Source: a virus (taxonomy: Duplodnaviria > Caudoviricetes). From it: 64,000 bases of DNA. The number at the start of each line of letters is the position of its first letter. The stretch's first letter is position 1. Under the pieces are notes generated by a model, which worked only from the letters and a program-made list of their open reading frames with translations, searched no databases and was not told the DNA's origin. The translations under genes were made by a program, and so were the position numbers. This document shows positions 1,599 to 32,450 of this stretch, piece by piece. Location of the stretch: IMG/VR virus record IMGVR_UViG_3300010885_059224, positions 9,835 through 73,834 of that record; one strand, written 5' to 3'.

Positions 1599-3281
1599 AT
1601 GCCTAAACAATCAGATGTAACATTATCGGTATCTCCTCTTCCTGGAGTAACACCTATAGGAGTTAGCCTTAACTTTAGTGTGGGAGCTATTCCGGTTTGT
1701 GCTGTTGACTTCGCCCCAGCGTATCCGGGACAACCCGCGAAAATAAGCGGAACCGCAGCGGGAATATTAACAAATCCAGATCAGTTTAAACGCCAAACAC
1801 CTATAGAAGTTTCAATTAGTGTTAAGACTACCTCTGGCGCGGGACAAACCACTACACACAGATTAAATTGGGAGGGATTATTAGACGGGGTGAGTTTAAG
1901 TAATAACGTAGGCAGTAATACTTATCAGGCCGTGCTAAAGGGCAAAGCCCAGACCCTACTAGAGTTAACTACCCTCACCCCAGGACTAACCCCAACATCT
2001 GTAAATATATATAAAAATCCATTCTTCTCTCTGCTTGTCTCCTCTGACGATAAAGACCCTAATGTAGAAAAAGCATGGGCGAGTCTTGGTTTTTCCGGTG
2101 CTTTAAAGTTTGAAGAAAGCCCATTAAAGTTTTACTTAAAATTAATGGAACACCTACTAAAACTTCAACAGGGAGGTTTTAGTAATTATTTAGGTGACCA
2201 GCAATCAGTAATGTCGACCAAGGCGCTGGAGAAGATATATAACGAACAAAGGTATTCTAAAGCCATACAAACAGGGATTGAATTACTAAAAAAAATAGAT
2301 ACCTCCGCAGTGGACGGCGGGTCTTTAGGTTCAATGACAACCTCATATCAAGGAGCGTCAGCAAAGATAAAAGAATACTTTTTCAGGGGGTCAAATGTAC
2401 TTCTAGAAAATCTAATGAACTTTTTAAGTTTTTTGGGGTGTACCCTAGTCTTTGGGAATAACAAAATTTTTGTAGTCCCGGAGAGATCATTTATTTTACA
2501 GACACACGAGGTGCCTGGTATAAAATCCCAGTCCGACAGACCTAATGTGGCTTACCCGGCAGATTACAACGGATACTCATACACTGACAATGGTTATAGA
2601 GATATTTACGCGGTGATACTCGCGAACAAACTACCATTGAATGGATCAGAGTATATTAATCTTCCCCATGACCCTGGGCTCGTTGGGTACTACAAAGATA
2701 AAAATGAATTAACAAAAGCCTCTGGTGTTTTAGTAGTTCAGGAGCATCCATTTTCATTATTCTACTCCACAACACATAACAACCCCCGTGATTCGCATGA
2801 GTTAAAACAAAAAGCTGATCAGGGAAAAGAAACCTCATATTATGACAAGCCGCACAAGTGGAGAGGTAACGAAGAACAAGAAAATCAACAAAAGAGAGCA
2901 GAAGAAAAACAAAAAAACTACACTCAGATAGTTTCGCCTGTGCTTGAAAATTATGCCCAGATTAAATTTTATCAAGCCAGATATGGAGATAGAAAGGGCA
3001 GCATAACACTATCTTTTAACCCGAACTGGGTTCCTGGAGCTAGCGGTACTTTATTCGTGAGAGAAACAAAGTTTAATTTAGACTTCTGGGTAGAGAGTGT
3101 TACCCATAGGGTAGACATGACACCTCCAGCGGGCGGCTCCGCAATGACAATAGTTAATTTTTGCTGCGGCAGGATGGGCACAAGTCCTGTGGGTGTTAGC
3201 GAAGACGGGTTTACAGGGTACAATAAAGGAAAAGAATCCTCCTTTAAAACATCTTTTATTCAAGATATAAGAGCTATTTAA
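1599..3281 (+). CDS. putative baseplate hub-like protein
   Basis: 560 aa; the C-terminal 'GSITLSFNPNWVPG...FWVESVTHRVD' resembles the beta-barrel end of hub (gp27/gpD-like) proteins; baseplate context. Confidence 0.45.
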   Translation: MPKQSDVTLSVSPLPGVTPIGVSLNFSVGAIPVCAVDFAPAYPGQPAKISGTAAGILTNPDQFKRQTPIEVSISVKTTSGAGQTTTHRLNWEGLLDGVSLSNNVGSNTYQAVLKGKAQTLLELTTLTPGLTPTSVNIYKNPFFSLLVSSDDKDPNVEKAWASLGFSGALKFEESPLKFYLKLMEHLLKLQQGGFSNYLGDQQSVMSTKALEKIYNEQRYSKAIQTGIELLKKIDTSAVDGGSLGSMTTSYQGASAKIKEYFFRGSNVLLENLMNFLSFLGCTLVFGNNKIFVVPERSFILQTHEVPGIKSQSDRPNVAYPADYNGYSYTDNGYRDIYAVILANKLPLNGSEYINLPHDPGLVGYYKDKNELTKASGVLVVQEHPFSLFYSTTHNNPRDSHELKQKADQGKETSYYDKPHKWRGNEEQENQQKRAEEKQKNYTQIVSPVLENYAQIKFYQARYGDRKGSITLSFNPNWVPGASGTLFVRETKFNLDFWVESVTHRVDMTPPAGGSAMTIVNFCCGRMGTSPVGVSEDGFTGYNKGKESSFKTSFIQDIRAI

Positions 3282-3284
3282 AAT

Positions 3285-3920
3285 ATGAATAACACAGACA
3301 TAAACAAATTATTAGTAGAACATAGAAAATTAATAGACTCTGAAGCTAAAAAGTATTCTACTAATATTCCTTTTATTACGGCTCAAATAGAAGCGCATAA
3401 ATTGGCAAGGCAGGCTGCAGAGTCGTATGCACCCACTACAGGCAAGTTCAGTACCCATCTAGTGAATAACCTTAAAAAGTTATCTAGGTTATCTACACAA
3501 TATGGTAGCTCTGTCAGACTCCCAGAAAATACTCAATTTGGAATAAATAAATTAAATAACCTGGAAAAACAGCTAGAGAGCGAATTTGGTCGTCCTCCTA
3601 CTGCAGAAGAATTAGCGGATAATTCAGGTATGGGTATAAAAACGGTTAATAGCTTACTTAAAAACAGAAAGTCTATAATTTCTTTTACAAATATGTTAAA
3701 CACCCCCACAATAATGGATAGCTCGAACGACGAATGGGCAACCTTCGTATATCACGACCTTGTACCAAAAGATAAACTGATATTCGAACATATGACTGGA
3801 TTTGGCGGTAAGCCAGTTCTAGACACACCAGGTATATCTAAAAAGCTAAAAATTTCAGAACCTCAAGTAAACCAGAGGATAAAAATAATAAGTGATATGC
3901 TTAATAAAGGATGGAAATAA
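3285..3920 (+). CDS. RNA polymerase sigma-70-family factor (group 3/4-like)
   Basis: Region-2-like 'GKFSTHL', region-3-like 'LESEFGRPPTAEELA', and region-4-like HTH 'LVPKDKLIF...ISKKLKISEPQVNQ'. Confidence 0.8.
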   Translation: MNNTDINKLLVEHRKLIDSEAKKYSTNIPFITAQIEAHKLARQAAESYAPTTGKFSTHLVNNLKKLSRLSTQYGSSVRLPENTQFGINKLNNLEKQLESEFGRPPTAEELADNSGMGIKTVNSLLKNRKSIISFTNMLNTPTIMDSSNDEWATFVYHDLVPKDKLIFEHMTGFGGKPVLDTPGISKKLKISEPQVNQRIKIISDMLNKGWK

Positions 3921-3921
3921 T

Positions 3922-4335
3922 ATGATCGCAGATACTTTAGAAAAACTAGTTGAAAAAATTAAAGACTGGCTGGAAACTGACGCCCCGACTTCTATGTATC
4001 AATCAGGGCAACCAAGAAAATGGTTTTTATCTTCTGTGAAATACAAAGATACTTTGAAGATGGAAGATATGCGAAAAGCCACAGATAGAGAAAAATTAAA
4101 CAGCGAATATAAAACTAGGTTTGAAGAAAACGATCCAAAGTCTAGAAAAGGTATATCCGCCCTAAAGTTAGAAATTAGCCAGTTATACTCATTTAATAGA
4201 TGTCTTATTCAAAGATACCAACCCAGGCTGCAATATTATCGTGCAGATTTATCTCAAAAAGGGGCAAGAAACATATATAACTCTTGGCAGTCTATCGCAG
4301 TATTCTTGAAGTTTAAACAAAAGTTAGACGTATAA
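3922..4335 (+). CDS. hypothetical protein
   Basis: ORF 3892-4335; ATG at 3922 preferred because it forms the TAA-T-ATG junction used repeatedly in this genome. Confidence 0.6.
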   Translation: MIADTLEKLVEKIKDWLETDAPTSMYQSGQPRKWFLSSVKYKDTLKMEDMRKATDREKLNSEYKTRFEENDPKSRKGISALKLEISQLYSFNRCLIQRYQPRLQYYRADLSQKGARNIYNSWQSIAVFLKFKQKLDV

Positions 4336-6435: not shown

Positions 6436-8945
6436 TGGACTTAGGGTTTTTATCTTCTTCATATCCTGCCGGAGATTATACAAATAGAGATAATTTGTTT
6501 ATGTCTCTTGGGTCGTTTTGGACTCAGGTATTTCAAGAGCAGGGAACACTCAGGGGATATACCCTAGCCATGGCTGAAGAACTTATTCAGAGTTATTATA
6601 ACTTAATAGATATCTTAAACTCATATTCAGTTAAAGATGTACCTGTACTAGCGAGAACCAAGTGGCAACCACTTGTTATAAAAAAATCAGAGTTTAACCA
6701 TGTACCTATTCAGTTTGCCCCTGCCTCTGTGGTTTTTGGTGCTCAGCCGGCTAGTGACTCTTATTACGCTGGGCAAACATTCCTTTTTGGAAAAGCTAAA
6801 ACACCATTTTCTTGGGTTTACAGTCTAGCACCCAATACTCCCCTGAGAAAGTTTTCCGTGGTTGCTGATCGTGTGATTGGTCCCAAAGCTATATATGTTA
6901 ACGGAGTGGATGTAATAATAGATCCATCTAATGTATTATATTTTAATTCAGACCCATTCCAAAACTCAAGTATACCTAGAGCGGCGATAATAAATGATAA
7001 TGGTACCCCTGCAACATTTGTTGATAATAATGGCGATAAACATAACGATGAATTAATTATTCTTTGGTGCTACAACGCGGAGAATGACAAAAATTATCTA
7101 TACGATAACTTCGGTATACTATTTGATTTTAAATTACCTTCATCAGAAAAATACAAAGCCATGCTCCAGGGCGTGTTTAACTTGTTTGTCTCGGGTCCTA
7201 CCGTCAATGCGATTAAATCCGTTATGGCTGCGTTTACTGGGGTTACCCCTGTTGTAAATACACAAGAAACCATACAGGACGTTTATTCTGATAACATTTA
7301 TAAATACGTAATTACGGATAAAGAAGTTTATCGGTTCGACAAAGACCAAAATTTAATGCCTGGAGTTAAGGCTGGTAAAGTCGTATACGGTGGTGAAATT
7401 CTTGTGGACGTCGTGCAATATTATGACGCATTAATAAAACCTAATTGGTGGAGCTCTGTTTCAAGTGCTCCGCAAGTTGGACTATCTACTCATATATTCC
7501 TAGGGGATTATAAACATCAACTGTTTTTCTCCACCTCAACAAGTCTAGTAACTTTAGATGCGAAAGGAAAAATAGTTTTTCCTGTACTGGGTACCCCTGG
7601 GGATGTTTTGGAGTTTAATAAGTTTATTAACCGTCCAGAAAACATAAACGCTAATAAAAAAGCGCTAGGTTTAAAAAATCCAGGAAACACAGCAGTTATT
7701 GTACCCGCGGATTTTATATTTAATAATTTTATTAAAAATAACACAGCACTGCTTAAATTTAATTTTTACAGTCCTGCGGATGTTTCTACATTTTTTAGCT
7801 ATTATCCATTACTTCAAAAATACCTACCAGCCCATATATACACATTGTTGTATGTAAATTTAAATTTGTCTGCTGACGTTTATGGCAATATGAATTCAAG
7901 ATACTCGATCCCGGCTCTTCCTGGAGTTTCTCTAAGTGTAGATGGATCTAACTCAGACGGAACCAGACCCACAACTGGGGTCGGAGATTCTAACTATTAC
8001 AAGGACTATAAGAGCAGGCTTTTTTCACTAAGTAAAACACCTAGCACATCAAATGCGGGTATAGTGCAAACTTCAACACTGAATGGCACTAACCAGTTTT
8101 TTAGCATACCTAATAATTCTACTATTGTACCTAGCGGAAGCTTTACATTCGCGGGATGGTTCAACGCGACCTCAACCGGAACCGGTATTGTTAGTATTAT
8201 AGGTGGGGGAGGAAGTAATAATTATTTCATTAGAACTAGGTCTAATAATCTACGTATTGATCTTTATGATAGTGCAAGTACGTATCAACAGGCATCTACT
8301 CCTGTAGGCTCGGTCGTTACAGGCAACTGGTACTTTTTCGCTGCAGGTTTTAATTCTTCTACTAGAGTAGGATTTATATCTCTTAATAATGGGGCTGTTG
8401 TTAGTACACCTCAGCTATCAACATCTTCGGTTTACTATAACCTCTCCGCACCTGGCACATTTACAATAGGTTCAGCTTTTGGTGGAGCTGCCCAGGCATG
8501 GCCAGGAACAATATCCTCTATAGGTTATTGGAATACTGTGCTTACAGCTAATCAAATCACCGCATTATATAATAATGGTACAGGATTAACTTTATCCCCC
8601 GCATTAGCTGCGGGGTTGGGTCAAAACCTAGTCTCATGGTGGGAGTTGGACGATGCAGCAGGGTCTACAAGTTATATTGATTCTGCTCCGTATGTTTCAG
8701 GGGTATCAGGAAATAATCATTTAACTGCAAATAATGGGCCTTTTGTAACCTCCTCAAGAAGTACAAAGATAGCTATTCCACTACACTCAGCGAGTAGCTT
8801 AGATCAGTTTACACTAACAAATACCCAAAGAACTGCTGGTATTCCTAGGGCATTTGATGGTAAAGTTTTTACAAGTATTCCAGCCACTAATCCGCCTCCA
8901 ACAAATGCCACAGTTCCTACTGTGTTATTGATAGACTTTTCATAG
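6435..8945 (+). CDS. baseplate wedge protein with an inserted LamG/concanavalin-like domain
   Basis: 836 aa; TAATG overlap with the previous gene; LamG hallmarks 'SFTFAGWF', 'GNWYFFAAGF', 'TISSIGYWNTVLTANQITALYNNG', 'LVSWWELDD'. Confidence 0.7.
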   Translation: MDLGFLSSSYPAGDYTNRDNLFMSLGSFWTQVFQEQGTLRGYTLAMAEELIQSYYNLIDILNSYSVKDVPVLARTKWQPLVIKKSEFNHVPIQFAPASVVFGAQPASDSYYAGQTFLFGKAKTPFSWVYSLAPNTPLRKFSVVADRVIGPKAIYVNGVDVIIDPSNVLYFNSDPFQNSSIPRAAIINDNGTPATFVDNNGDKHNDELIILWCYNAENDKNYLYDNFGILFDFKLPSSEKYKAMLQGVFNLFVSGPTVNAIKSVMAAFTGVTPVVNTQETIQDVYSDNIYKYVITDKEVYRFDKDQNLMPGVKAGKVVYGGEILVDVVQYYDALIKPNWWSSVSSAPQVGLSTHIFLGDYKHQLFFSTSTSLVTLDAKGKIVFPVLGTPGDVLEFNKFINRPENINANKKALGLKNPGNTAVIVPADFIFNNFIKNNTALLKFNFYSPADVSTFFSYYPLLQKYLPAHIYTLLYVNLNLSADVYGNMNSRYSIPALPGVSLSVDGSNSDGTRPTTGVGDSNYYKDYKSRLFSLSKTPSTSNAGIVQTSTLNGTNQFFSIPNNSTIVPSGSFTFAGWFNATSTGTGIVSIIGGGGSNNYFIRTRSNNLRIDLYDSASTYQQASTPVGSVVTGNWYFFAAGFNSSTRVGFISLNNGAVVSTPQLSTSSVYYNLSAPGTFTIGSAFGGAAQAWPGTISSIGYWNTVLTANQITALYNNGTGLTLSPALAAGLGQNLVSWWELDDAAGSTSYIDSAPYVSGVSGNNHLTANNGPFVTSSRSTKIAIPLHSASSLDQFTLTNTQRTAGIPRAFDGKVFTSIPATNPPPTNATVPTVLLIDFS

Positions 8946-12798: not shown

Positions 12799-15700
12799 AT
12801 GTCAGCTCTAGAATACTTAAGTAATAATGCTTTAAACAGCTACCCATTTAAAGATGGTAGGGAGGCTAATCCTGATCTTCCTATCCCAAACGACGCATTT
12901 CTTGATGCACTGTTTATAACCAGCAACCACAGCATAAAGAGGGTATACATATCTAGAATAACGCAAGTTCAAGGAAATATAAGTATAGAATTATCTGAAG
13001 TAACATCTGGCGTCATTGGTACATTAGACTTTAAATTATCGGATGCAGTAAGTCATCTTAACAACCAAGATAAAAGTTTTATAGCTGGTTCTGGTACAGC
13101 TTGGGTTATAAAGCTGGTATTCGGTCCAGGGATATCATTTTTAAAAGGGAACAGAGCACCTGTAACATACACACCCCAGCAAACAGAGCTACTATCTTCT
13201 ATATTACAAAACTATCCAAGAACAGTAACATCGCTTAAATTTCAATCTTACACACCGCAAGGAGCTATATCAACTCAGGAGTTAACCGAAGTTCACAAGT
13301 ACATAGCTGGAGACATTGTGCATATCGCAAATGGGGCGAATAATGAATTTAGTACAGGCACCGGATCCGTGATGTACATAGACATTGACAGGGGTAAAGG
13401 AAAAGGGTTATGGGATCCTTGCAGCACAGGCCAGATAAAAAATATTTATTCAGTTAACGAGATAATACCAAGTAGCGTTGGAGAATTTTTTATTAACGCT
13501 GACGATTGTTATTCCGTAAAATTACTGTCGGCCAGTGAGCTTTCAGACCTAGGCAGCTCCACAAGCTCACCGACACATATAAAAACAGCAACAAACTATG
13601 CAAACTTTTCAACGCCCATAACACCAAAAGCAATACTTTCCGGTCTTATGGACTACGTTGGTCATTCTGCGGTCGCACAAAACTCAGTTAATGTAAGTTT
13701 CACAAGCCCAGAAATTGGGGATTTGATATCTGAAAACCCAGAAAACTACAGAATTATATTTAATGGTGGGTACATAGCAGAAAAAATAACAGGAGCTACA
13801 GGGGCGTATACACCAGGAGCAGTGTGGGCTATAACTGGTGTTTGGCCAGCCAACACCACTGGGGCTCCATTTTCAATCCAGCAAAAAAAAGTTTCCTTTA
13901 ACGCCATAAGCGCGGCAGCCGGCGGCCATGGCTTTATGATGAGTAATAGCTGCTCTGCAAAATGCCCCCCAGAGAATATAAATGCCTTTGCAAAATATAT
14001 GAACAGGGTAACAGATGGCGCCGCTGAACTTTATAAGATAGTTAATAACAATAGTCAAACATACGGTACCGGCAATATTGACGGAGCCCCTTTCTCTTCT
14101 GATAGCTTTAATGGAGTTATAAATAGCGCCTATTTTAAAGCGTATAATTTTTGTCAGGAGCCTGGGAGCTCAAGACCAATATCTTGCAACGCCAGCTTTA
14201 AAAAATATTTTCACGAGGGTAGAGATATAAAAATCACAAAAGGAAGGGATAATTATATATTTCAAATAAAAAAAGTTTTATCGTCTACACGCATTATAAT
14301 ATCCCCCGCGATTCAAACTCCCGATATTTTTTCAGCGTTATGTGATATATTAAACACGCCTGGCACATATTATTCTTTTTCTGTGCTAGACTATGGTATA
14401 AAAAACTCATTAAACGACGCTATTATTAATAAGAATAATAAAGTTGCTACACAAAACACACCTTATATAGATTTGAATTACGGTACTGTGGAGGCGTACA
14501 ACACAGCACGAGATTACGGAACTTTCATTACCTCCGTAATTGTTATCTATAACCCATCTGCAACTTCAATAACTTACAGTATCAGCGCAACGGTATTAGG
14601 CTTAGCTTCATTGGTTGGAACATCTGTAAAAATAAAAACAAGCAAGGGAGATATAAGTTATGGTGCCACCACAGGTACAATAGATTGCCAAGATTATAAT
14701 ATTTATGAATCAATATATTTTATACCTTGCTCTCCTTCTGAGCATAATTTAAGCGCTGGTGGGGTACAATTCGAGGTGAATAATACAACACATACACCTC
14801 ACGTACCAATACCCTATTACATTAACGGAGCCATAACAGCCCCATCAATTCCTCACTCCGAAAGCAGTACTGAATTAATTGCTGCCTTATGTGTATCTAC
14901 CACGGTAGTCGAAGATTCTATTACCGCGACTCAAGGTAAAGCATTTGAATATAATATAACGCTTCTCGGCAACGCAACTGATGTTAAAGTTGCCGGTGAT
15001 TTACCCAGCTGGATAACCCTCAGTCACACCACTACCCCTGGAGATCCTGTGATAAATAACTGGAAATTATCTGCAACAAATCCTGACGGGATATCCAACA
15101 AAACGTATAATATTACTATATCTGGCTCCGGAGATACTCCAGTAGCTGCGATTAGTTTACATTTACAATATATAGCAAAACCAGTGCTAAGTTACCCAGT
15201 GGACGATACCGCCGCTGGAAGGGCTCCATTTTCTTACGTTTTACATATATACCCCCCCGACGGTGGACCCAAAATAAAAACTACCAGGCAATTCACTCAG
15301 GGTGCGCCATTAATGGCAATTCTTGCATCTAACAGCCCAACCAGTTACTCGATAACAGGATCTATCCCCAATGGACTAACTGTTTCAGGTCGCGGGCTGA
15401 TAGGTAAAATTAGTCTTCCGGAGTCCACAACTTATCCTGCGGTTTATAATCTTACACTTTCCGCCACCAATTCTGCAGGTACTTCCAAGACGGCTACAGT
15501 TGCATTAACTATACATGACGTAGGTATAACTACTCCTTGGGCGATAACAAATACATTATTTAATTATTCTATTATAACCGCGGGTGACGTTATATCCCAG
15601 ACGCTGATTTCAATAATTCCCGACTGGTTAACTTTTGATGGTGCAATCAATCTTTCTAGTACTTCTAAGCCAAAAGCTAATTTTTCTGGAACATATACTG

Positions 15701-18537
15701 GAGCGGACACAACAACTATTTCCGCGGTTGTCAGGCAAAATTTAATAAACGGAGGTTATAGACTTATTGAATATAATATACCTGCCAAAGCATTGCCGTA
15801 TATTACTTACCCAGTTACAGGCAGCACAATCGATGTATATTCTCCAGATTTCCAAGATTATTACGGTAATACCACTACGTTTACAACAACCAACCCATTT
15901 TTAATCGTTTTAGCTAAAAATAATCCAACAAATTTTAATGCTGTGGGACTGCCTACAGGACTCACAATCAACCGCGATGGAAAAATAATAGGAAAGATTA
16001 CATCTGCACCAGCAGGCATATACGTTGTCACAATCTATGCTATCAACGCACTAGGCAACTCTCAAAGTATAACAATAAACATAAAACTCTCTACCGCGGT
16101 AGAAGAAATACCTGCATTCCAGGGTGACTCGTTTTGTTATAAATTTCCAGCTTTGAATAGCTTAATTAATGTTGAAGGCTGCTCATTCACAGTAACCGGC
16201 CGAGATGCAGCTAACCCAGCTCCAACTTGGCTTGGAGTAAGCAAAAGTATAAATTCTTCTTGTCACCTTTATTACTCTGGGGGAGATCCTGGCTTATCTA
16301 CTGGTACAACAAGTTTAATCTTATTAACGATAAACAATAACGATGTAATATCTCGGCGTTATTTTAATGTAACCTACTCTCCTATACCTAACATCTTCGG
16401 CCCTCAAAGATCTAATATTTGGCAGGTGGCGTATACGAACTACAAAAATAATGTTTATACCACCGAATTACCGTTAGCTAAAATAGAAGCCAGTCATTCT
16501 CCTACAAGTTATTCTGCTACGGGTTTGCCGTCTAGTTTGAGTATAGACTCAGCCGGTAATATTGTGGGCAGTTTAACCGTGCCGCCTGGTAACTACTATT
16601 TTACCATTTATGCAACCAATGAAGCTGGAAGAAGTGAAGGTGTTCAGTTCCAACTAAATGTTAGTTCTTCTCCCATTGAATATACAATATACAATAAAAT
16701 AGAATTCAGTCTTTATGCGTTTGGACCAGCTAATTCTTCATATTCATATTCAGGAACGCTTCCACCAGGGCTAACTTTTTACCCAACAACTCGTCCAATA
16801 TACGGAGATTTGATAGTGGGTTATGTAAATTTAACTAGCGATGCTTCATACCCAATAGACATAACTGTTCACAATGGAACCAGCAGCCTAAAATATTCAT
16901 TTCTTTTAATTTATGATTCTAATGCATTAACTATTACTAATAGCGGAACGGTATATCCAATAGTAATACCTGACTACGGTTTACGGAAATATACCAATAG
17001 CTCGCCATTACTCACCATAACCACAAATGTTCCAGCTACGTACTTTTACGGTAGTGGATTACCGCCAAGCCTAACTATTGATGCATCTACTGGGTGCATC
17101 ATTGGTGGGCCTGTTACTACTGAGGGGTATTATACCGCCACGATCACGGCAAAAAATTCGAAATATACAGCCACTGCAGAATATTTTTTCAATGTGGAGA
17201 ATAACGTAACCCGTTACCAGGCTGTGCACGGTGAGCCTGTATGTATACCGATAACAGCAGGTGTATACAACTATATTCTAAGTGCTGGTATTACCTCCGG
17301 ATATTTACCTGGGGGACTCTCACTAAACGGACAGTCAGGTGTAGATTGTGGAATTTATGGTTATGTTTCACAGGGCGCCCCCTCAGGAACATCTGTAGTG
17401 ACTATACGTAATAATTATATTGGTGGCTCCTTTAACCAAAATATTGCTATAAGTTACGTAGGAATACCTACAATAACAAGTATTGAAGTTGGCTCTACCC
17501 CAACCACAAGCACTAGTAGAGTTAACAGTTTTAAATTTAAGCCGTCTAGATATAATTCATACGGACCATACACTAAAGAAAACCCACTACTCACCGTAGT
17601 GGCCACAAATTCTCCAACGTCATTCATATATTCAGGATTACCAAGCAATTTAAGCATAGACAACTACGGAAACGTTGTAGGCATCCCATCCATTGTTGAG
17701 ACAGACGCGTTGTATTACGTATATGTTGTTGCGGTAAACTCCGTTGGTCGTTCGGGAGAGTATTTATTTACGATCGATTTAACAAAAACAAGCCCAAGTA
17801 TAAACTGGCAATCTCCAGGAGTATTGCTCTTTAGAGATACCGCGGAAAATGGAGATATATTCACCGCAACAGAAGGACATACCCCGCCGTATAGTGGAAC
17901 TTTTGTATACTCAATTGCTCCTACAGATAGGTTTGATATAGGCTCGCAAAATTTAAGTATCACTTTTAATCCAACCAACAGAGCAGACTATTCCTCTCTA
18001 AGCAAAACGTTCTTCTATAACGTATCACCCGCCGGGTTTAGAATAGTGTGGAATCCTGTCATATCTACGCTAACAAACACGGAATCTATAGACAGCAGGA
18101 TTCTGAATGCTTATGTTGTTTTAAATACGGACCCATCGTATCACCCGCAGGGTAGCTTTGAGTATACTATCTATGCATCTAGTGGAGCTACTGGCGTTTC
18201 GGCAAGTAATTATTCTCTCGATATGGGTAGCCCGGACATTCCAATTGATACAGTGGAGGGAGTGGTTATACGTCTTAAATTCACTCCAAACATATCCACA
18301 CGGTGGGAGCAGCTCCCGCAGTATGACTACAGAAATGTATTTTTCAAGAAGGTGAACCAGCCATCAGACTGGACTCCAACACCTACACCTGAGCCTACAC
18401 CTGAGCCTACACCTGAGCCTACACCTGAGCCTACCCCTGAACCTACACCTGAACCTACACCTGAACCTGAACCTACACCTGAACCTACACCTGAACCTGA
18501 ACCTACACCAGATCCTGATCCTGGTATGGGCGAATAG
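12799..18537 (+). CDS. giant tail fibre/adhesin with tandem Ig-like (putative-Ig type) repeats, paralog 2
   Basis: 1912 aa; repeated 'A.N.PTS(Y/F)...GLP.GL.I...G.I.G......G.Y..TI.A.N..G' units; Cys-rich N-terminal third; Pro/Thr/Glu tail. Confidence 0.75.
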   Translation: MSALEYLSNNALNSYPFKDGREANPDLPIPNDAFLDALFITSNHSIKRVYISRITQVQGNISIELSEVTSGVIGTLDFKLSDAVSHLNNQDKSFIAGSGTAWVIKLVFGPGISFLKGNRAPVTYTPQQTELLSSILQNYPRTVTSLKFQSYTPQGAISTQELTEVHKYIAGDIVHIANGANNEFSTGTGSVMYIDIDRGKGKGLWDPCSTGQIKNIYSVNEIIPSSVGEFFINADDCYSVKLLSASELSDLGSSTSSPTHIKTATNYANFSTPITPKAILSGLMDYVGHSAVAQNSVNVSFTSPEIGDLISENPENYRIIFNGGYIAEKITGATGAYTPGAVWAITGVWPANTTGAPFSIQQKKVSFNAISAAAGGHGFMMSNSCSAKCPPENINAFAKYMNRVTDGAAELYKIVNNNSQTYGTGNIDGAPFSSDSFNGVINSAYFKAYNFCQEPGSSRPISCNASFKKYFHEGRDIKITKGRDNYIFQIKKVLSSTRIIISPAIQTPDIFSALCDILNTPGTYYSFSVLDYGIKNSLNDAIINKNNKVATQNTPYIDLNYGTVEAYNTARDYGTFITSVIVIYNPSATSITYSISATVLGLASLVGTSVKIKTSKGDISYGATTGTIDCQDYNIYESIYFIPCSPSEHNLSAGGVQFEVNNTTHTPHVPIPYYINGAITAPSIPHSESSTELIAALCVSTTVVEDSITATQGKAFEYNITLLGNATDVKVAGDLPSWITLSHTTTPGDPVINNWKLSATNPDGISNKTYNITISGSGDTPVAAISLHLQYIAKPVLSYPVDDTAAGRAPFSYVLHIYPPDGGPKIKTTRQFTQGAPLMAILASNSPTSYSITGSIPNGLTVSGRGLIGKISLPESTTYPAVYNLTLSATNSAGTSKTATVALTIHDVGITTPWAITNTLFNYSIITAGDVISQTLISIIPDWLTFDGAINLSSTSKPKANFSGTYTGADTTTISAVVRQNLINGGYRLIEYNIPAKALPYITYPVTGSTIDVYSPDFQDYYGNTTTFTTTNPFLIVLAKNNPTNFNAVGLPTGLTINRDGKIIGKITSAPAGIYVVTIYAINALGNSQSITINIKLSTAVEEIPAFQGDSFCYKFPALNSLINVEGCSFTVTGRDAANPAPTWLGVSKSINSSCHLYYSGGDPGLSTGTTSLILLTINNNDVISRRYFNVTYSPIPNIFGPQRSNIWQVAYTNYKNNVYTTELPLAKIEASHSPTSYSATGLPSSLSIDSAGNIVGSLTVPPGNYYFTIYATNEAGRSEGVQFQLNVSSSPIEYTIYNKIEFSLYAFGPANSSYSYSGTLPPGLTFYPTTRPIYGDLIVGYVNLTSDASYPIDITVHNGTSSLKYSFLLIYDSNALTITNSGTVYPIVIPDYGLRKYTNSSPLLTITTNVPATYFYGSGLPPSLTIDASTGCIIGGPVTTEGYYTATITAKNSKYTATAEYFFNVENNVTRYQAVHGEPVCIPITAGVYNYILSAGITSGYLPGGLSLNGQSGVDCGIYGYVSQGAPSGTSVVTIRNNYIGGSFNQNIAISYVGIPTITSIEVGSTPTTSTSRVNSFKFKPSRYNSYGPYTKENPLLTVVATNSPTSFIYSGLPSNLSIDNYGNVVGIPSIVETDALYYVYVVAVNSVGRSGEYLFTIDLTKTSPSINWQSPGVLLFRDTAENGDIFTATEGHTPPYSGTFVYSIAPTDRFDIGSQNLSITFNPTNRADYSSLSKTFFYNVSPAGFRIVWNPVISTLTNTESIDSRILNAYVVLNTDPSYHPQGSFEYTIYASSGATGVSASNYSLDMGSPDIPIDTVEGVVIRLKFTPNISTRWEQLPQYDYRNVFFKKVNQPSDWTPTPTPEPTPEPTPEPTPEPTPEPTPEPTPEPEPTPEPTPEPEPTPDPDPGMGE
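18382..18510 (+). repeat. coding tandem repeat, 12-bp unit CCTACACCTGA(G/A), encoding (PTPE)n
   Basis: Roughly ten directly visible units with two 6-bp CCTGAA insertions; in frame in the 1912-aa ORF. Confidence 0.95.
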
Positions 18538-18595
18538 TTAATATTAACGAGTTAATTATGGTATATTTTAATTAAATGTGTAAATATCAAATACT

Positions 18596-20035
18596 ATGGC
18601 CATCAGTACACTAAATTTTTTAAATAAGAACCAGTTTAGGAGTTACCCACTCAAGGCCGGCAGCTCTTTAACTTCTATAGATGGCAAAATTATAAGCGAC
18701 GAATTATTTGTGGGAGCAAGCATCACGACCACGATCAATAGAAAAAACCTGTTCATTAAGCAGGTATACATAAATGGTGCGGAAATAAGAGTTACCATAG
18801 CGGCAGTCCTACAAAATTCAAATTTTGAAACACTTGGAATATGCTATGGAACCATAGAGTCAGACTTTACGGTTTTAAAACTAACTGAAACTGCTATGTT
18901 CACGAGCGGTACGCTTATAGTAGGCACATTAGACTCTGTTATTTCTCACTCTGGAGTTTATACATTCGATAACACTAGCGCCAACTTCGAAGAGTCTGTC
19001 GTTTTTTATTATACGCCGCCCCCAGTAAAAAGTTTACACTGTAAAGGAATTTCCCTGCGAGGAAATGTTAAGTTTGGGGTTTTGTCTAATCTTATAAAAT
19101 CAAGAATAGAAGGCTCCAATAAAATTAATTTTGGTGTTATATCCTCCGCTAGTGTTAATAGTTTGGCGGATAAATCTTCGGTATTTAATAATTGCCCAAC
19201 ACCAATAATAAGATATATAGATGGAGCAATACCGTTCTATCAGGCAGCTGATTCTGTGGATGCTCATAACTCCCCCAATTATCTTCCAGCTCTACAAGGT
19301 AATTTGTTTATGGTGGGCGTTTCCCCGCTATCATTTAAAAATCAACAAAATCTCAGTTCGTCACTGGGGCTAGTCGATATCGGTGGTATAAGCACAGAGG
19401 CAAAATCCATTACTAACGGCTCACCTATCACGCTTAATACTTTATGTAGTGCTAGAAACGCTGTACTTCCGCCAGTGGCGCCTATGTATATAAATAATGG
19501 CTTACTGGACGGATCATCCCCAGCAGCAGATGGAATTTCAAGTTATTATACTAAATCTAGTTACTACCCTAGTAATTTTTACTCTGTTGTAGACCCCGAG
19601 TTTACCTGGTGGCCTCAATTTTTTACTTATAGTAGTATTGCACCAGCCACCCCGATTACCGCGAATATTGGAGCTACTGGATTAATAGGCGTGGTGACAC
19701 TCCCAGCAGAAACCGTGGTTAAAAAATACTCAATAGCTGTGGTTTTTGTGAATACTGGAGTAGCCACGTTAGACTTAACTTTGGTACTTACTAGAAAAGC
19801 TCAAGATGGCACCACGACCACATCCAAGCCGGAGGGTTTTCATAACATCATAGTTAATCCAAACAGCTCCATAATCGTGAGAACAGTTAACGACAGCAAC
19901 TATCCAAGACATGAAATAACTGGATCTGGCTATCCAATACCGATGGAGATTGCCACAGGTGATACATTTTATGTATATTTTAATAATGTATCAGGAGGGG
20001 TCTCAACCCTACAACCATACCTATACTATAGATAA
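18596..20035 (+). CDS. tail-associated protein, paralog 3
   Basis: N-terminal 'FLNKNQFRSYP'; 'IDGAIP' motif with flanking Cys. Confidence 0.55.
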   Translation: MAISTLNFLNKNQFRSYPLKAGSSLTSIDGKIISDELFVGASITTTINRKNLFIKQVYINGAEIRVTIAAVLQNSNFETLGICYGTIESDFTVLKLTETAMFTSGTLIVGTLDSVISHSGVYTFDNTSANFEESVVFYYTPPPVKSLHCKGISLRGNVKFGVLSNLIKSRIEGSNKINFGVISSASVNSLADKSSVFNNCPTPIIRYIDGAIPFYQAADSVDAHNSPNYLPALQGNLFMVGVSPLSFKNQQNLSSSLGLVDIGGISTEAKSITNGSPITLNTLCSARNAVLPPVAPMYINNGLLDGSSPAADGISSYYTKSSYYPSNFYSVVDPEFTWWPQFFTYSSIAPATPITANIGATGLIGVVTLPAETVVKKYSIAVVFVNTGVATLDLTLVLTRKAQDGTTTTSKPEGFHNIIVNPNSSIIVRTVNDSNYPRHEITGSGYPIPMEIATGDTFYVYFNNVSGGVSTLQPYLYYR

Positions 20036-20037
20036 CA

Positions 20038-20805
20038 ATGTCATCATATACCGTACTATCTTGGCAGAATGAAAATGGGCTAACCAATTACCCATTTTCT
20101 AGCCCTATGCAAATAAATGATTTGGTTGTAGATGCTTCATTTATTCAGTTCGATAATTATACACCAATATTGAACAGCATTCTTGTAGGTAGAGACTACA
20201 TGGAGTTTAGAATAACTTTTGATAACGGTGTAGTTTTGGCTAAGTATCTTAAAACATCGTACGACTCCGGGCTTAGGAATCTTAGATTTTATGACTATGG
20301 TGGAAATAGGTATCTTGGTTGTTTGACAATTGGTGAAGGTGCTGTAACTGCATGGACTAGCTATGTTGGAGAAAACTTGATTATTTCACTTCCATTTGTT
20401 GCGACAACAGTGCGAAGCATACCATTGAACGACGCGGTGTATAAGCTAGATAATTCCTATGGTACCTTGGTTTTAGGTGCAAACCAAGATATAGCGGATA
20501 GCTTTATACAGGTAGGTAATCTTGTGTACCAAAAATCTGCCGGAGGTAATACTGTTTTTTATAACACTTCGGTATCCCCGGCAGCGATTACATTTAACGC
20601 TGTAGGTAATAGCTCTATATCCGCCAGTAATAAAACCCACCCTTTAAAACAGATCAATCTTACTAAACCTATAGATAACAATATTACGTTAAACGGAAAT
20701 GACATTGTTAAATTTAAGTCTATAAACAATCAAAATTTATCTATATATGTTACCGGCAGCGGAATATCAAATTCTAGCCCATTATTAACAACATTAGCCT
20801 TATAA
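20038..20805 (+). CDS. tail-associated protein, paralog 4
   Basis: N-terminal 'WQNENGLTNYP'; C-terminal 'INLTKPIDNNI'. Confidence 0.5.
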   Translation: MSSYTVLSWQNENGLTNYPFSSPMQINDLVVDASFIQFDNYTPILNSILVGRDYMEFRITFDNGVVLAKYLKTSYDSGLRNLRFYDYGGNRYLGCLTIGEGAVTAWTSYVGENLIISLPFVATTVRSIPLNDAVYKLDNSYGTLVLGANQDIADSFIQVGNLVYQKSAGGNTVFYNTSVSPAAITFNAVGNSSISASNKTHPLKQINLTKPIDNNITLNGNDIVKFKSINNQNLSIYVTGSGISNSSPLLTTLAL

Positions 20806-20806
20806 T

Positions 20807-21964
20807 ATGGAAATAGTACAATGGCTTAACGAAAACGCCCTGAGGGCTTACCCATTAATAGAGGGTAAGACTGTAGAGCAAATACCTGATGGAGTCATAC
20901 TAGACTTATTACTTAATATTTCCGAAGGCACAGATCCCGCAACAGCTAAATTAACCGCACTAGTTGTTAATTCTACAGATATAACTGTTATTTTTACAGA
21001 TAACTTTTTTGATTATAATTATGCTGAGCATGGAGTCTCTGGCATTGATAATATTACATTTCCAATATACATAAGAAATGCTTCAGGCAGCCTAGTAGTA
21101 CTTGGAGAGGACTTGAAAAAAATAACAAGAGGCACTGTATTTAATGTAGATGTCCCTGTTGAACCCGCCACAGTATACCAATTTAGTGGTGCATGGAATG
21201 GTGTTACTAGCATATCGGGAAATCCCAATTACCTTAGCGGTGGGTTCCAAATAGCCAACATTATGAACTATTCAGGACAACCATCAGTAGGGTACAATAC
21301 CGTAAGTGTTGGCCTTGGTAATCCTGGGTGGGGTCCCCAAATACAAGCAAACCCACATAGTTATGAAATTGTATTTAATGGTGGATTAACCGCAGATATC
21401 GCTACAGCTTCAGGTAGTCCGTATCCAGGAGGCCGCTGGACTTTTACCGGTGAATGGCCAGCTAACTCAAATGGCGCCCCACTAACCATAAGATCAAAAA
21501 ATACAGATTCATTTGCACCATTTCTCCCGCTACAGTCGGTTGACGGTGTTGGCTTGACTGGAGATATCGAATTTGTTCCTGGTTATAACTACGCGATAAA
21601 TTTTAATAACAATGCGATAAATATGACAGTTGGCTACCGATTAGGCCTAAAAATGGATTGCACAACCAAATTTCTACAGGATAAATACCTGGATTGTGGG
21701 GATATCGTATCTTATATTAACGGAGTACCTCCGGATGACTCTGGAGTGTTTAAATTCACTGCAGGTAGCAATATTTATTTATTCGATGGTGATTCGGTAC
21801 AAGAGCCCATACAGGATACAAACCTAGCCCCACCGTTGAGTGTTTATACAGATATATCAGGGGACAAACAAACAGGATTAAATAATAACACTATATTTGT
21901 AGGGTTGACATTCCTAGAGTCTGATTTATGCTCTCCTATACAACTACTACCCACAAATAACTAA
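20807..21964 (+). CDS. tail-associated protein, paralog 5
   Basis: N-terminal 'WLNENALRAYP'; 'CGDIVSYINGVPPDDSGVF' motif. Confidence 0.55.
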   Translation: MEIVQWLNENALRAYPLIEGKTVEQIPDGVILDLLLNISEGTDPATAKLTALVVNSTDITVIFTDNFFDYNYAEHGVSGIDNITFPIYIRNASGSLVVLGEDLKKITRGTVFNVDVPVEPATVYQFSGAWNGVTSISGNPNYLSGGFQIANIMNYSGQPSVGYNTVSVGLGNPGWGPQIQANPHSYEIVFNGGLTADIATASGSPYPGGRWTFTGEWPANSNGAPLTIRSKNTDSFAPFLPLQSVDGVGLTGDIEFVPGYNYAINFNNNAINMTVGYRLGLKMDCTTKFLQDKYLDCGDIVSYINGVPPDDSGVFKFTAGSNIYLFDGDSVQEPIQDTNLAPPLSVYTDISGDKQTGLNNNTIFVGLTFLESDLCSPIQLLPTNN

Positions 21965-23674: not shown

Positions 23675-24255
23675 GTAACCACGATTTGCTGGGCTCTATT
23701 AATTTAGGGTATAGCGGCAAATCAATTGGTTGACAACCCCACACACCCAACAACGTGCATCTTCTTCACAGAAGATAGCATGTTACATTTAGCTTTTTGG
23801 GGTGCACAGATCCTCATATTTTGAAACACTGCCTGAATAGGGCGCAGGGAGAACCTGCGACTACACATACCCGGTTATCTGTTTTCATAGGGACTATGTG
23901 GGTTGCAACACAGGCAGTGTTTCTAACTCGTCTATGCGAGTATAAATAGCCAACTAGGCATAGAGCGTCCCGGCTAAAATAGCTGGGGGATTGGGCGCAA
24001 GAATGGAACGTATCGTAATTAAGTTACGCTCCCCTAATAGGTCAATATGGTATAACCCATATTTGGTGACAACCTCATAGGTCTCTGCAAAGACAATGAA
24101 CAAATCACCCGCCTCGCTAATGACAATTGCAGAAGTCTTGGCAGGAACGCGCCCCGAATTTAAATAAGCTTGTGAGTAGAGCGCCCGGAGATCTGGCGAC
24201 ACGGTTAGTAGATTGATTTTTAACCACACGCTGGTGGTATTTAATCTGCTAAATG
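23675..24255 (+). ncRNA. candidate large structured ncRNA A (about 580 nt)
   Basis: Lies in a ~700-bp gap with no plausible + ORF; TATAAT at 23664; perfect 13-bp helix 23823-23835/23911-23923 closing a multibranch loop; many further hairpins with G-U pairs. Confidence 0.65.
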
Positions 24256-24330
24256 GTGATGATCACACAAACTTATTTTTAACTGTCCCCTCCCCTAAAC
24301 CAAAACACCAACCATAACCATAAAACAAAC

Positions 24331-25113
24331 ATGGCTAAAAACGTAGAAGTAATAGATTGGGCTTCACCTGCCCGTAAGGCAAAAAGAGACAATGATCTTT
24401 ATATCAATAGGGATCTCAAGAAGCTCATGACATATCGTGAGTATAGAAATCAACCAGTTAATGTTTTATCATTACCTGCAGAGAAGTGGCTGTGGGAGAG
24501 CCAGTTGATTCAGAACTTCCCTAATAATAAGATTAACTTTCTAGGCACAGAGTCAAATCCTGTAGTTTATAAGAAAGCGCTAGAAGTAGCTACCACGATT
24601 AATGGTAAAAACGTAAAAACAGAACTACTACCCAACAAATGGGAAGAAGTGGTGGTTAGAGATTTTAACTCTAGGATGTTTAATCCCACAGATGCTGGTT
24701 TTGACATCATTTACGGGGACTTCATGGGTACATTTAATAGAGGCATTATAGGCTATATAGAAGAACTATTGAGTGATACCGAAATGTTAAAACCTCTTGG
24801 TAATATTATTTTTACATTCATGCTTGCTCGTGGATGTAAATATACCAGAGAGGAAACAATAAAGATCGGGGAGAAATCCGCTTATAGACATCAGCTCTAT
24901 GTTGATGACGATAAGATGTGGCTACGGAACACCAAAAACAACACCTCAAATCTGGTACATACATATGCTCTGGGCATTATGGAAACAGTTGTGTTAATCG
25001 CCAAGAAGTTTGGTAAGGTATTAATACCCGCTAAACCTCACGTTTATTATAGCCCAGGAGCTAACGGAGCAGAACTTCCAGAAGGCAGCTTTTGCTTTAC
25101 TAGGCTTAAATAA
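24331..25113 (+). CDS. class I SAM-dependent methyltransferase-like protein
   Basis: Rossmann-like order: 'VNVLSLPA' (motif I-like, without GxG), 'FLGTE' (motif II), 'FDIIYGDFMG' (motif IV), 'LKPLGNIIFTF'. Confidence 0.55.
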   Translation: MAKNVEVIDWASPARKAKRDNDLYINRDLKKLMTYREYRNQPVNVLSLPAEKWLWESQLIQNFPNNKINFLGTESNPVVYKKALEVATTINGKNVKTELLPNKWEEVVVRDFNSRMFNPTDAGFDIIYGDFMGTFNRGIIGYIEELLSDTEMLKPLGNIIFTFMLARGCKYTREETIKIGEKSAYRHQLYVDDDKMWLRNTKNNTSNLVHTYALGIMETVVLIAKKFGKVLIPAKPHVYYSPGANGAELPEGSFCFTRLK

Positions 25114-25135
25114 TTTAATACACTTATAAAAATTT

Positions 25136-25569
25136 GGGGGCGTTACTGGCACTCGACTCCAGAAATAGATAACACACCTACATGCGGAGGATCTCAGTTG
25201 GCCTCCTTAATCATCTGGGAAAAAACTAAAAGCAGCCTCTAACGAGACGCTTGCTCCTAGCCTCGCCGAGGCAGACGCCATTCTTGCAAAGTTTGGCTAT
25301 GCTGACGCTGAGCTCCTCGCTGCCTAACCGCAGCGGAGAAATCCGCTAGTTGCAATAACGGTACAAGGACGCCCGATGCCATGTACTTCAAACGGGTACC
25401 TCGATTATATTGTGAGGGTATAATTCATATATGCACCAATTGCATTAAGTTGGGAATCTGAACTACGCATTTACACATTATTGTAGTTCTTATATTAAAT
25501 GTGAAAAGCATGTACACGGTTGTTTGAAATATCTGGAACACAGGGGTTCGAATCCCCTCGCCTCCACCA
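25136..25569 (+). ncRNA. ssrA: tmRNA
   Basis: 5' GGGGGCG...CTCGAC and 3' GGGGTTCGAATCCCC-T-CGCCTCC-ACCA; G3-U70 Ala identity pair; pk1 GGAGG/CCTCC; tag ORF 25232-25327 ending LAA-stop. Confidence 0.95.
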
Positions 25570-25574
25570 ATTTG

Positions 25575-26325
25575 AATGTCGAACCCCGCTCCCCTCTTGT
25601 CCAATACCATGGACTGAGGGGAGCAACATTTTATCCGAGAAATCCCATTGCGATAAGCTGGCAGCACATTAGAGCTGATCCAGTGTGTCAGAAGAACTCG
25701 TAGACCGAAGACGTTTTGGGCGAATAGGTCAATTAATTTTCCTCCTAGGGTGAGGTCGCTCCCCTTGCTCATAGCTTGACGAATACTGCACGACTACAGT
25801 TATCGTTAAAGCGAAAGAGACCGCAGTTCCCTGCACGTGTAATCCCTCTATTATATCAGGCATGAGTAATAAGAAACATGACTAGTCATCATGGGGGAGA
25901 GAAGCTAGCTGCGGGTGGAGGAACACTTTTTATCCCAGTAGTTGTATATAAAACCCACACTGAGAAGCACGTCAGCCGCCGTGTGTATACGTGGAAATCC
26001 TGAAGATAAACGATACATCCTCTCATAGGCATACAGGTGATGAATGTGAGAACAAAGGAAATCAACCATCTAGGAGCTACAACTACTGGGAAAATTTGGT
26101 AATGTATTTTATCGGTTAAATCATTAATGTTACAGCCGTCTGTGGCCGCGAGATATCATATCTTTCCCGCCCAAAAAAATAACAGATAGAATAATTCAAA
26201 GGGGTCCAAACCTGTAGATTTATTCTAGCACTATAAAGTAACAGCCATTAACCATTTTCTAAATCTGACACACTCAGGCTTGGGAGCACTGGTCCGGCAG
26301 TGACTAACACAATCCGGAAAATTTT
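25575..26325 (+). ncRNA. candidate large structured ncRNA B (or nested RNA array)
   Basis: Lies in a ~900-bp gap with no + ORF; long-range 11-bp helix 25682-25692/26264-26274 encloses three domains, one closed by a perfect 14-bp helix 25933-25946/26078-26091. Confidence 0.7.
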
Positions 26326-26362
26326 ATTTGCCACATAACCTATATAGGTCTATTGTGATTCT

Positions 26363-26443
26363 AGCTCAGGACAACCAAAAACCCTCTGGTATTAGGCGTA
26401 TGCTCCAATGGCACGTGGAGTATTTTAAGTCCTGTCCTGAGCT
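26363..26443 (+). ncRNA. candidate small structured RNA C (81 nt)
   Basis: Perfect 11-bp closing helix AGCTCAGGACA/TGTCCTGAGCT with internal hairpins. Confidence 0.5.
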
Positions 26444-26471
26444 CTAATTTTTAGCTATCAACATAAAGCAC

Positions 26472-26693
26472 ATGACACACAAAAAAACCACAGTAGAAAT
26501 TCCACAATGGTGGGAAGCAACAGCAGACAACTATAATGATTTCTGGAATATGCAAAGGGCGTACAGCCTGGCAGGATTAAACACAAGCTATAAAGAGATA
26601 GCCCAATACAACACTCCCCCATATTTGGCTATATTTTGGGTAGGTAAACGACCTGACCAGGTTATTGAAAAATATTCCGAGAAATCCGTTTGA
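26472..26693 (+). CDS. hypothetical protein
   Basis: 73 aa; AC-rich leader like other genes in this window. Confidence 0.55.
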   Translation: MTHKKTTVEIPQWWEATADNYNDFWNMQRAYSLAGLNTSYKEIAQYNTPPYLAIFWVGKRPDQVIEKYSEKSV

Positions 26694-26718
26694 CAGGGCT
26701 GCAATACTAGCTTAGGGT
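26690..26718 (+). promoter_or_regulatory. possible sigma-70 promoter
   Basis: TTGACA-N17-TAGGGT, 8 nt before the ATG at 26727. Confidence 0.35.
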
Positions 26719-26726
26719 CAAAAACC

Positions 26727-27029
26727 ATGAGTAAAACTACCACACAAAAAGAAAGCATCCTAGAGGAAGCCCTTCGTTTGACGTCTGGTGATCGTCGTAG
26801 AGACTATGACCACCCAGCACCAAATCACGAAAGAATATCCACACTATGGAATGCTTATCTATCAGTTAGAAAAGATCCAGAGGCGGAGATTTCTGCCTAC
26901 GACGCAGCAATGATGATGATGCTACTAAAGGTGGCCAGGGATGTATATACATCCAAGCGCGATAACTTCGTTGATGCTATCGGTTATATCCGTTGCGCAG
27001 CTATTATCGCAGGATACGAAGAACAATAA
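26727..27029 (+). CDS. DUF6378-like phage protein
   Basis: 'ILEEA...GDRRRDY...NHERI..LWNAYL...MM.LLKVAR...DNFVDAIGY'. Confidence 0.75.
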   Translation: MSKTTTQKESILEEALRLTSGDRRRDYDHPAPNHERISTLWNAYLSVRKDPEAEISAYDAAMMMMLLKVARDVYTSKRDNFVDAIGYIRCAAIIAGYEEQ

Positions 27030-28265: not shown

Positions 28266-28340
28266 TCCTGATTAGCTCAATGGTAGAGCAGTGAGCTGTT
28301 AACTCGCATGTTGTTGGTTCGAGTCCAGCATCAGGAGCCA
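28266..28340 (+). tRNA. tRNA-Asn(GTT)
   Basis: Acceptor TCCTGAT/ATCAGGA, anticodon loop CTGTTAA, T-loop TTCGAGT, encoded CCA. Confidence 0.95.
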
Positions 28341-28428
28341 GATTTGAGATGTTTGGGTCGCTCCCAACTGAAGGGCAAACGCAGGATCAGGCCAACGAGA
28401 TACAAATAAACCCTGCACAATTTTAAAT

Positions 28429-28499
28429 TACCCTGTGGTGTAACGGTAACACTTTAGTTTTTGGCACTAACATTCATGGTTCAAATCCATGCGGGGTAG
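28429..28499 (+). tRNA. tRNA-Gln(TTG)
   Basis: Acceptor TACCCTG/CGGGGTA, stem TTAGT/ACTAA with loop TTTTGGC, T-loop TTCAAAT; CCA not encoded. Confidence 0.9.
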
Positions 28500-28516
28500 T
28501 ATATAATAATTTATCT

Positions 28517-28590
28517 GGAGTTGTAGCTCAATTGGTCAGAGCACCGCCCTGTCACGGCGGGGGTTGCGAGTTCGAGCCTCGTCAACTCCG
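28517..28590 (+). tRNA. tRNA-Asp(GTC)
   Basis: Acceptor GGAGTTG/CAACTCC, loop CTGTCAC, discriminator G; CCA not encoded. Confidence 0.95.
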
Positions 28591-28604
28591 GATTACATTT
28601 TAAT

Positions 28605-28679
28605 GCACGATTAGCTTAGCGGTAGAGCAGGTCCTTTACACGGACAAGGTCGGGGGTTCGATTCCCTCATCGTGCACCA
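28605..28679 (+). tRNA. tRNA-Val(TAC)
   Basis: Acceptor GCACGAT/ATCGTGC, loop TTTACAC, encoded CCA. Confidence 0.95.
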
Positions 28680-28680
28680 C

Positions 28681-28753
<73 letters not shown>

Positions 28754-28763
28754 CAAATTTAAT

Positions 28764-28849
28764 GGGTAGATACCGAAGCGGTCAAACGGGGTAGACTGTA
28801 AATCTACTGGCATTAGCCTTCGAAGGTTCGAGTCCTTCTCTGCCCACCA
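28764..28849 (+). tRNA. tRNA-Tyr(GTA)
   Basis: Acceptor GGGTAGA/TCTGCCC, loop CTGTAAA, long variable arm, encoded CCA. Confidence 0.95.
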
Positions 28850-32408: not shown

Positions 32409-32450
32409 ACCTCCCACGCCTCTCACTGAAGCGCACCAGGGAGGTTTTTT
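32409..32450 (+). terminator. intrinsic terminator-like hairpin
   Basis: ACCTCCC...GGGAGGT followed by a T tract. Confidence 0.55.

Follow-up and report, generated by a model that had tools for sequence, protein, structure and literature searches.

What is encoded in the long stretch without open reading frames (ORFs) that follows the transfer-messenger RNA (tmRNA) gene of an uncultured lake phage? To answer this, we analyzed a window of 64,000 nucleotides, corresponding to positions 9835-73834 of the 73.8-kb IMG/VR record IMGVR_UViG_3300010885_059224 (estimated 38% complete; a 93%-complete relative is 182 kb). The DNA polymerase of the phage is at most 24% identical to that of any of 50,697 deposited phages, and four metatranscriptome runs of lake water yielded contigs that lie on the locus. 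Almost all genes are on the + strand, and the stretch sits in an RNA-rich island composed of a Pistol ribozyme (23926-23994), a gene coding for a 260-aa protein (24331-25113), the tmRNA (25136-25569; detected by ARAGORN and by Rfam RF00023 at 76.8 bits), the ORF-free stretch itself, small ORFs from 26472 onward, six tRNAs (28266-28849), and an abiF RNA motif (32410-32445). The last scored just at the Rfam gathering score (37.3 against 37), although the homologous site in a relative (L116, see below) scored more strongly, at 50 bits. The tmRNA encodes an unusually long 31-residue tag ending in LLAA that is conserved with few changes in relatives. Farther upstream (12799-21964), four consecutive large ORFs, perhaps tail-fibre-like judging from their size and position, share an N-terminal motif (NSYPFK / RSYPLK / TNYPF / RAYPL), and the segment 18609-23800, which includes three of them, is far more diverged from the relative L114 (74% nucleotide identity) than the rest of the locus (95-98%).

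First, we examined whether the stretch is truly noncoding and structured, as had been proposed in a preliminary description. No + strand ORF of 60 aa or more lies between the tmRNA end (25569) and the ORF at 26472, and the longest stop-free + frame in 25570-26470 is 51 codons. Alternative genetic codes (TGA=W, TAG=Q, TAA=Q) opened no convincing frame, and substitutions against a 71%-identical homolog (L116) showed no 3-nt periodicity (66, 66, and 55 by codon position). Inverted repeats were found at 25588-96 / 25616-24 (9 nt, 100% complementary), 25682-92 / 26264-74 (11 nt, 100%), 25739-45 / 25917-23 (7 nt, 100%), and 25930-46 / 26078-94 (17 nt, 94%), the last containing a perfect 14-mer (25933-46 / 26078-91). 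By our own estimate, a perfect 14-mer inverted repeat within 900 nt is expected by chance about 0.0015 times and an 11-mer about 0.1 times. The minimum free energy (MFE) of the + strand of 25570-26330 was -221.3 kcal/mol, against -190.5 +/- 8.8 for 20 dinucleotide shuffles (z -3.51, 0 of 20 as good), and the MFE structure contained all these helices. The - strand gave a z of -2.05, with 1 of 20 shuffles as good.

In order to find homologs, we anchored on the flanking 260-aa protein, which has only 2 database relatives, scanned with DNA patterns, and searched whole records. A blastn search of 25100-26500 against 50,697 phage records found no match, and a 14-mer scan of IMG/VR returned 112 chance loci, among which only a 25-nt spurious hit was found. 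However, divergent relatives carry the same region at about 71-75% identity, and it is at least as conserved as the flanking genes (64-73%). The RNA region of L114 (record G004) is 98.6% identical to the window. L116 (identical to L117 and L128; record G001) carries the equivalent of 25731-26553 at 71-72% identity, starting about 20 nt after the CCA end of its tmRNA. The other relatives are L120/L135 (record G003), L118 (record G002), and L125, a distant metagenome contig. A D3 pattern (see below) gave six stretches in metagenome contigs, of which two were homologs (L125 and L128) and four were unrelated GC-rich coding sequence; in genome contigs it gave 1 unrelated hit, while patterns for B3', D2, and D3 always returned the same 4-5 contigs in IMG/VR. 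Nineteen more distant phage loci, found through the 210-aa downstream protein, carry none of D1, D2, D3, B3', or E by nhmmer, nor D3 by covariance model. Of the 12 of these loci scanned with Rfam, four have a tmRNA, and in all four it is followed soon by an ORF or a tRNA. The family is therefore narrow.

Comparison of these relatives showed that the region is a string of modules. Module A (25588-25624) is an extended GC-rich hairpin followed by AACAUUUU that looks like a terminator or processing hairpin. Module B5' (25633-25727), the 5' half of what we call scaffold B, contains a hairpin with a conserved loop (AYAUUAGA) and the invariant GUGUCAGA segment. Domain D1 (25739-25923) is closed by the 7-bp helix 25739-45 / 25917-23 and has 9 helices, and domain D2 (25933-26091) is closed by the 14-bp helix 25933-46 / 26078-91. 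Domain D3 (26097-26247), whose core (26136-26186) is almost invariant across the lineages that carry it, is the most widely kept module. Its conserved closure is the 4-bp helix 26097-26100 / 26244-26247, while the longer TGGTAATG / CATTAACCA pairing of the preliminary description is specific to the window. D1, D2, and D3 are not detectable repeats of one another. Module B3' (26287-26318) is a 5-bp hairpin (26287-91 / 26298-302) whose loop (26293-97) pairs with 26314-18, forming an H-type pseudoknot. Lastly, conserved structure continues beyond 26325, where the preliminary description had ended, to about 26456. This module E (26348-26456) is a three-way junction closed by the 11-bp helix 26363-73 / 26433-43, followed by UAAUUUUU with a U-run at 26448-52, and is the likely intrinsic terminator and 3' end. 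At the same place, L120 and L118 have a simple hairpin followed by UUUUAGCUA. A generic promoter and terminator scan, which was no better than shuffles, did not list either A or E.

We then evaluated whether the helices predicted with RNAalifold are maintained by compensatory substitutions. In D2, 16 of 48 pairs had changes on both sides (95.1% of cells paired), against 6 or fewer in six slid-partner controls. The values were 13 of 57 in D1 (93.9% paired; controls of 2 or fewer) and 11 of 34 in D3 (91.0% paired; controls of 4 or fewer), and in all three cases 0 of 500 shuffles reached the observed value. The D2 closing helix has three different sequences in three lineages, and 9 of its 14 pairs covary. 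Along similar lines, compensatory changes were found in 3 of 11 pairs of A (across the window, L114, L118, and L135), 6 of 28 of B5', and 5 of 36 of E. The pseudoknot stem of B3' reads UCCGG/CCGGA in the window, UCCAG/CUGGA in L118, and CCCAG/CUGGG in L120, with two of its five positions covarying; this was read by eye because MAFFT misplaces a 1-nt indel in L120. There are only 2 to 4 independent lineages per domain, and the structures were predicted from the same alignments on which they were tested, which inflates the paired-cell measures. Interestingly, unpaired positions were as conserved as paired ones (75.6%, 189 of 250, against 71.4%, 197 of 276, between the window and L116). The forward consensus energy was better than that of the reverse complement in 4 of 4 domains, although only modestly. 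Together, we are highly confident that this is a conserved structured RNA locus.

Could this be a member of a known family? No Rfam 15 family, including GOLLD, ROOL, and OLE, matched the region at the gathering score or at E<=10 with permissive filters, the only listings inside it being a CRISPR-repeat model at E = 3.8 and a partial permuted-tmRNA alignment over the tmRNA end and hairpin A at E = 0.14. GOLLD (RF01998) is a large (over 800 nt), multi-domain, phage-encoded RNA of unknown function near tRNA islands, first seen in lake and marine metagenomes, with a universally conserved part and a variable part (PMC12286853). Here, the structured span (about 25588-26456) is of about 0.8-0.9 kb, next to a tmRNA and 1.8 kb upstream of the six-tRNA cluster, with D3 as the constant part and the other modules varying. 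However, besides the lack of a match to the GOLLD model, its architecture is a string of closed domains, it follows a tmRNA directly, and it is known from only a handful of contigs. ROOL (RF03087) is a phage or prophage RNA near tRNA islands, with a complex fold including pseudoknots and no known protein partner (PMC12286853), but its model did not match either. We found no description in the literature of a structured RNA trailing a phage tmRNA, although a catalogue of 8,495 candidate structured RNAs from IMG/VR intergenic regions (PMC10690425) might include pieces of this one.

Modules are gained and lost as whole units between relatives. L116 lacks A and B5', and G003 has A, B5', D2, D3, and B3' but no D1. 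L118 has A, an unrelated 546-nt insert, and then B5' joined directly to B3' (7845/7847), without D1-D3, while only D3 is recognizable in L125. D3 is single-copy in four of the five related records searched (G000, G001, G003, and G004) and absent from the G002 fragment. The post-tmRNA region of L118 (7047-7900) carries other modules, namely an 85-nt unit shared with G003 and the 546-nt GC-richer insert, which occurs nowhere else in the five records searched. This region folds even more strongly than the window (z -5.6), and nothing credible was found with Rfam at E<=10 in 7040-7980. In L125, D3 lies at the 3' end of an ORF-free stretch of about 1 kb (3129-4196; fold z of -2.95 for 3440-4196), which is preceded by a T-arm-like sequence that neither ARAGORN nor Rfam calls as a tmRNA or tRNA; here too, Rfam at E<=10 (3080-4200) gave nothing credible. 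A second unnamed structured RNA may exist in the window, since about 300 nt after the Pistol ribozyme (within 23926-24290) are ORF-free on the + strand and conserved against L118 and L114, with long invariant blocks and compensatory changes in 15 of 92 predicted pairs. In L118, it runs straight into the tmRNA.

Given that B5' and B3' abut in L118, the 556-nt block containing D1-D3 (25728-26283) is a clean insertion in the window, and we considered whether it could be an ORF-less self-splicing or otherwise mobile intron-like RNA inserted into a small host RNA gene (B), the neighboring insertions of relatives being of the same nature. The block can be drawn to end in G, and the lineage does carry introns. 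In L114 (7226-7876) and L135 (about 640-1296), the tmRNA gene is interrupted in the TpsiC loop by an insert of about 650 nt with a 136-aa minus-strand ORF bearing an LIDGEG motif, probably of the LAGLIDADG homing-endonuclease type, and ARAGORN and Rfam then miss the tmRNA. The intron form of tmRNA genes, with a group I intron in the TpsiC loop, is known (PMC11915505), but the tmRNA of the window is uninterrupted and the structured region lies after its CCA end. No group I (RF00028) or group II intron model matched, even at E<=10 (25400-26800 for group I), and no convincing P1 pairing was found by eye, with the boundary ambiguous by 1-2 nt. L116 keeps D1-D3 under compensatory evolution although the 5' "exon" (B5') is missing, G003 has lost D1 alone, and L125 has D3 alone. 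The architecture is of three tandem closed domains and not a P3-P9 / P4-P6 core. We consider this explanation unlikely.

We also regard as improbable that the region is a long structured 5' leader of the downstream genes, a DNA-level element such as an origin or packaging site, or decaying sequence. It does lie directly upstream of a 73-aa ORF (26472 onward), in L125 D3 abuts an ORF start, and in L118 B lies about 90 nt upstream of the methyltransferase-like gene. The latter codes for the 260-aa protein that in the window precedes the tmRNA; it has no Pfam or PHROG match, but its structural model, of moderate confidence (pLDDT 66.6), resembles class I SAM-dependent methyltransferases, with the tRNA methyltransferase Trm1 as the top hit (3axs; E 2e-7, TM 0.45). 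However, a hairpin plus U-run separates the region from the ORF, the downstream gene differs between relatives, and G-U pairs and asymmetric energies favor an RNA on the + strand. Conservation equals that of the flanking genes and compensatory changes are frequent, which excludes decay, and there is no GC-skew turn here.

Is this one RNA or several? The preliminary description had left open either a giant noncoding RNA, possibly of a new class, or a precursor cut into several RNAs, and this alternative is supported by the absence of Rfam matches, the covariation, and the folding energy. Its proposal that the 11-bp helix (25682-25692 / 26264-26274) brackets the three domains was not supported as a conserved feature. 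The helix is present in the window and L114 but reduced to 8 bp in G003, while its 5' arm is absent in L116 and its 3' arm in L118. Neither were the proposed outer pairings favored, since CCCA (25644-47) covaries with UGGG inside B5', and CCGGA (26314-18) with the loop of the neighboring hairpin, as a pseudoknot (both read by eye from the sequences). It is possible, although we hold it only tentatively, that the region is an array of independent small RNAs (A, B, D1, D2, D3, and E, each about 60-190 nt), co-transcribed with the tmRNA and tRNAs and cut apart in the linkers, as phage tRNA clusters are. The domains are present or absent independently, the enclosing helix is not conserved, and every module is followed by an A/U-rich linker with a U-run. 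In addition, B5', D2, and D3 each start with a similar AUUUUAUCC-like motif (25626-25644, 25925-25938, and 26106-26122), which could be a processing signal or a recombination joint. In contrast, the arrangement of B5' and B3', contiguous in L118 but separated by D1-D3 in the window, looks like insertion into one scaffold, and an 11-bp (window) or 8-bp (G003) pairing links B5' to the segment after D3.

Evidence of transcription is weak. Metatranscriptome contigs cover the tmRNA (25146-25567), and a single exact 205-nt contig (depth 2.7), from one of four lake metatranscriptomes, covers 25655-25859 and crosses the B5'/D1 border, but the RNA library may contain DNA. Contigs cannot rank expression, and we take the lack of further cover as uninformative. 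In L116, there is no room for a promoter between the tmRNA and D1, so co-transcription with the tmRNA is the simplest reading, although hairpin A could terminate the tmRNA transcript before the RNA begins. All in all, we consider it somewhat more likely than not that 25570 to about 26452 (+ strand) encodes one modular RNA of about 0.8-0.9 kb, or at least a single functional precursor, in which D1-D3 are optional branches set into scaffold B. We infer that it is transcribed together with the tmRNA as part of a stable-RNA island (Pistol ribozyme, tmRNA, this RNA, and tRNA cluster), freed by endonucleolytic maturation of the tmRNA 3' end, and terminated at the hairpin plus U-run of module E. It would act in trans, with the near-invariant D3 core as its binding or active center, perhaps on the translation or RNA-processing machinery of the host, and would resemble ROOL and GOLLD in kind without being a member of either family. 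A more speculative possibility, which we find doubtful, is that of a previously undescribed class of giant, ornate phage RNA, released as a 3' trailer by tmRNA maturation and with interchangeable domains plugged into a small pseudoknotted scaffold, that, like ROOL and GOLLD, would form a higher-order RNA assembly acting on the host's translation or ribosome-rescue machinery during infection.

Very few large, elaborately folded bacterial or phage RNAs are known (GOLLD, ROOL, OLE, and a few others), and none has an established function. The RNA described here would be a further, unrelated family that sits in the same kind of place, a phage stable-RNA island, with unusually clear domain modularity and a direct physical link to a phage tmRNA. 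This would give a second angle on what such RNAs do and a tractable target, of about 170 nt per domain, for structure work. It would also show that post-tmRNA regions in large uncultured phages are hot spots for structured-RNA innovation, since in this clade they carry different modules in different lineages.
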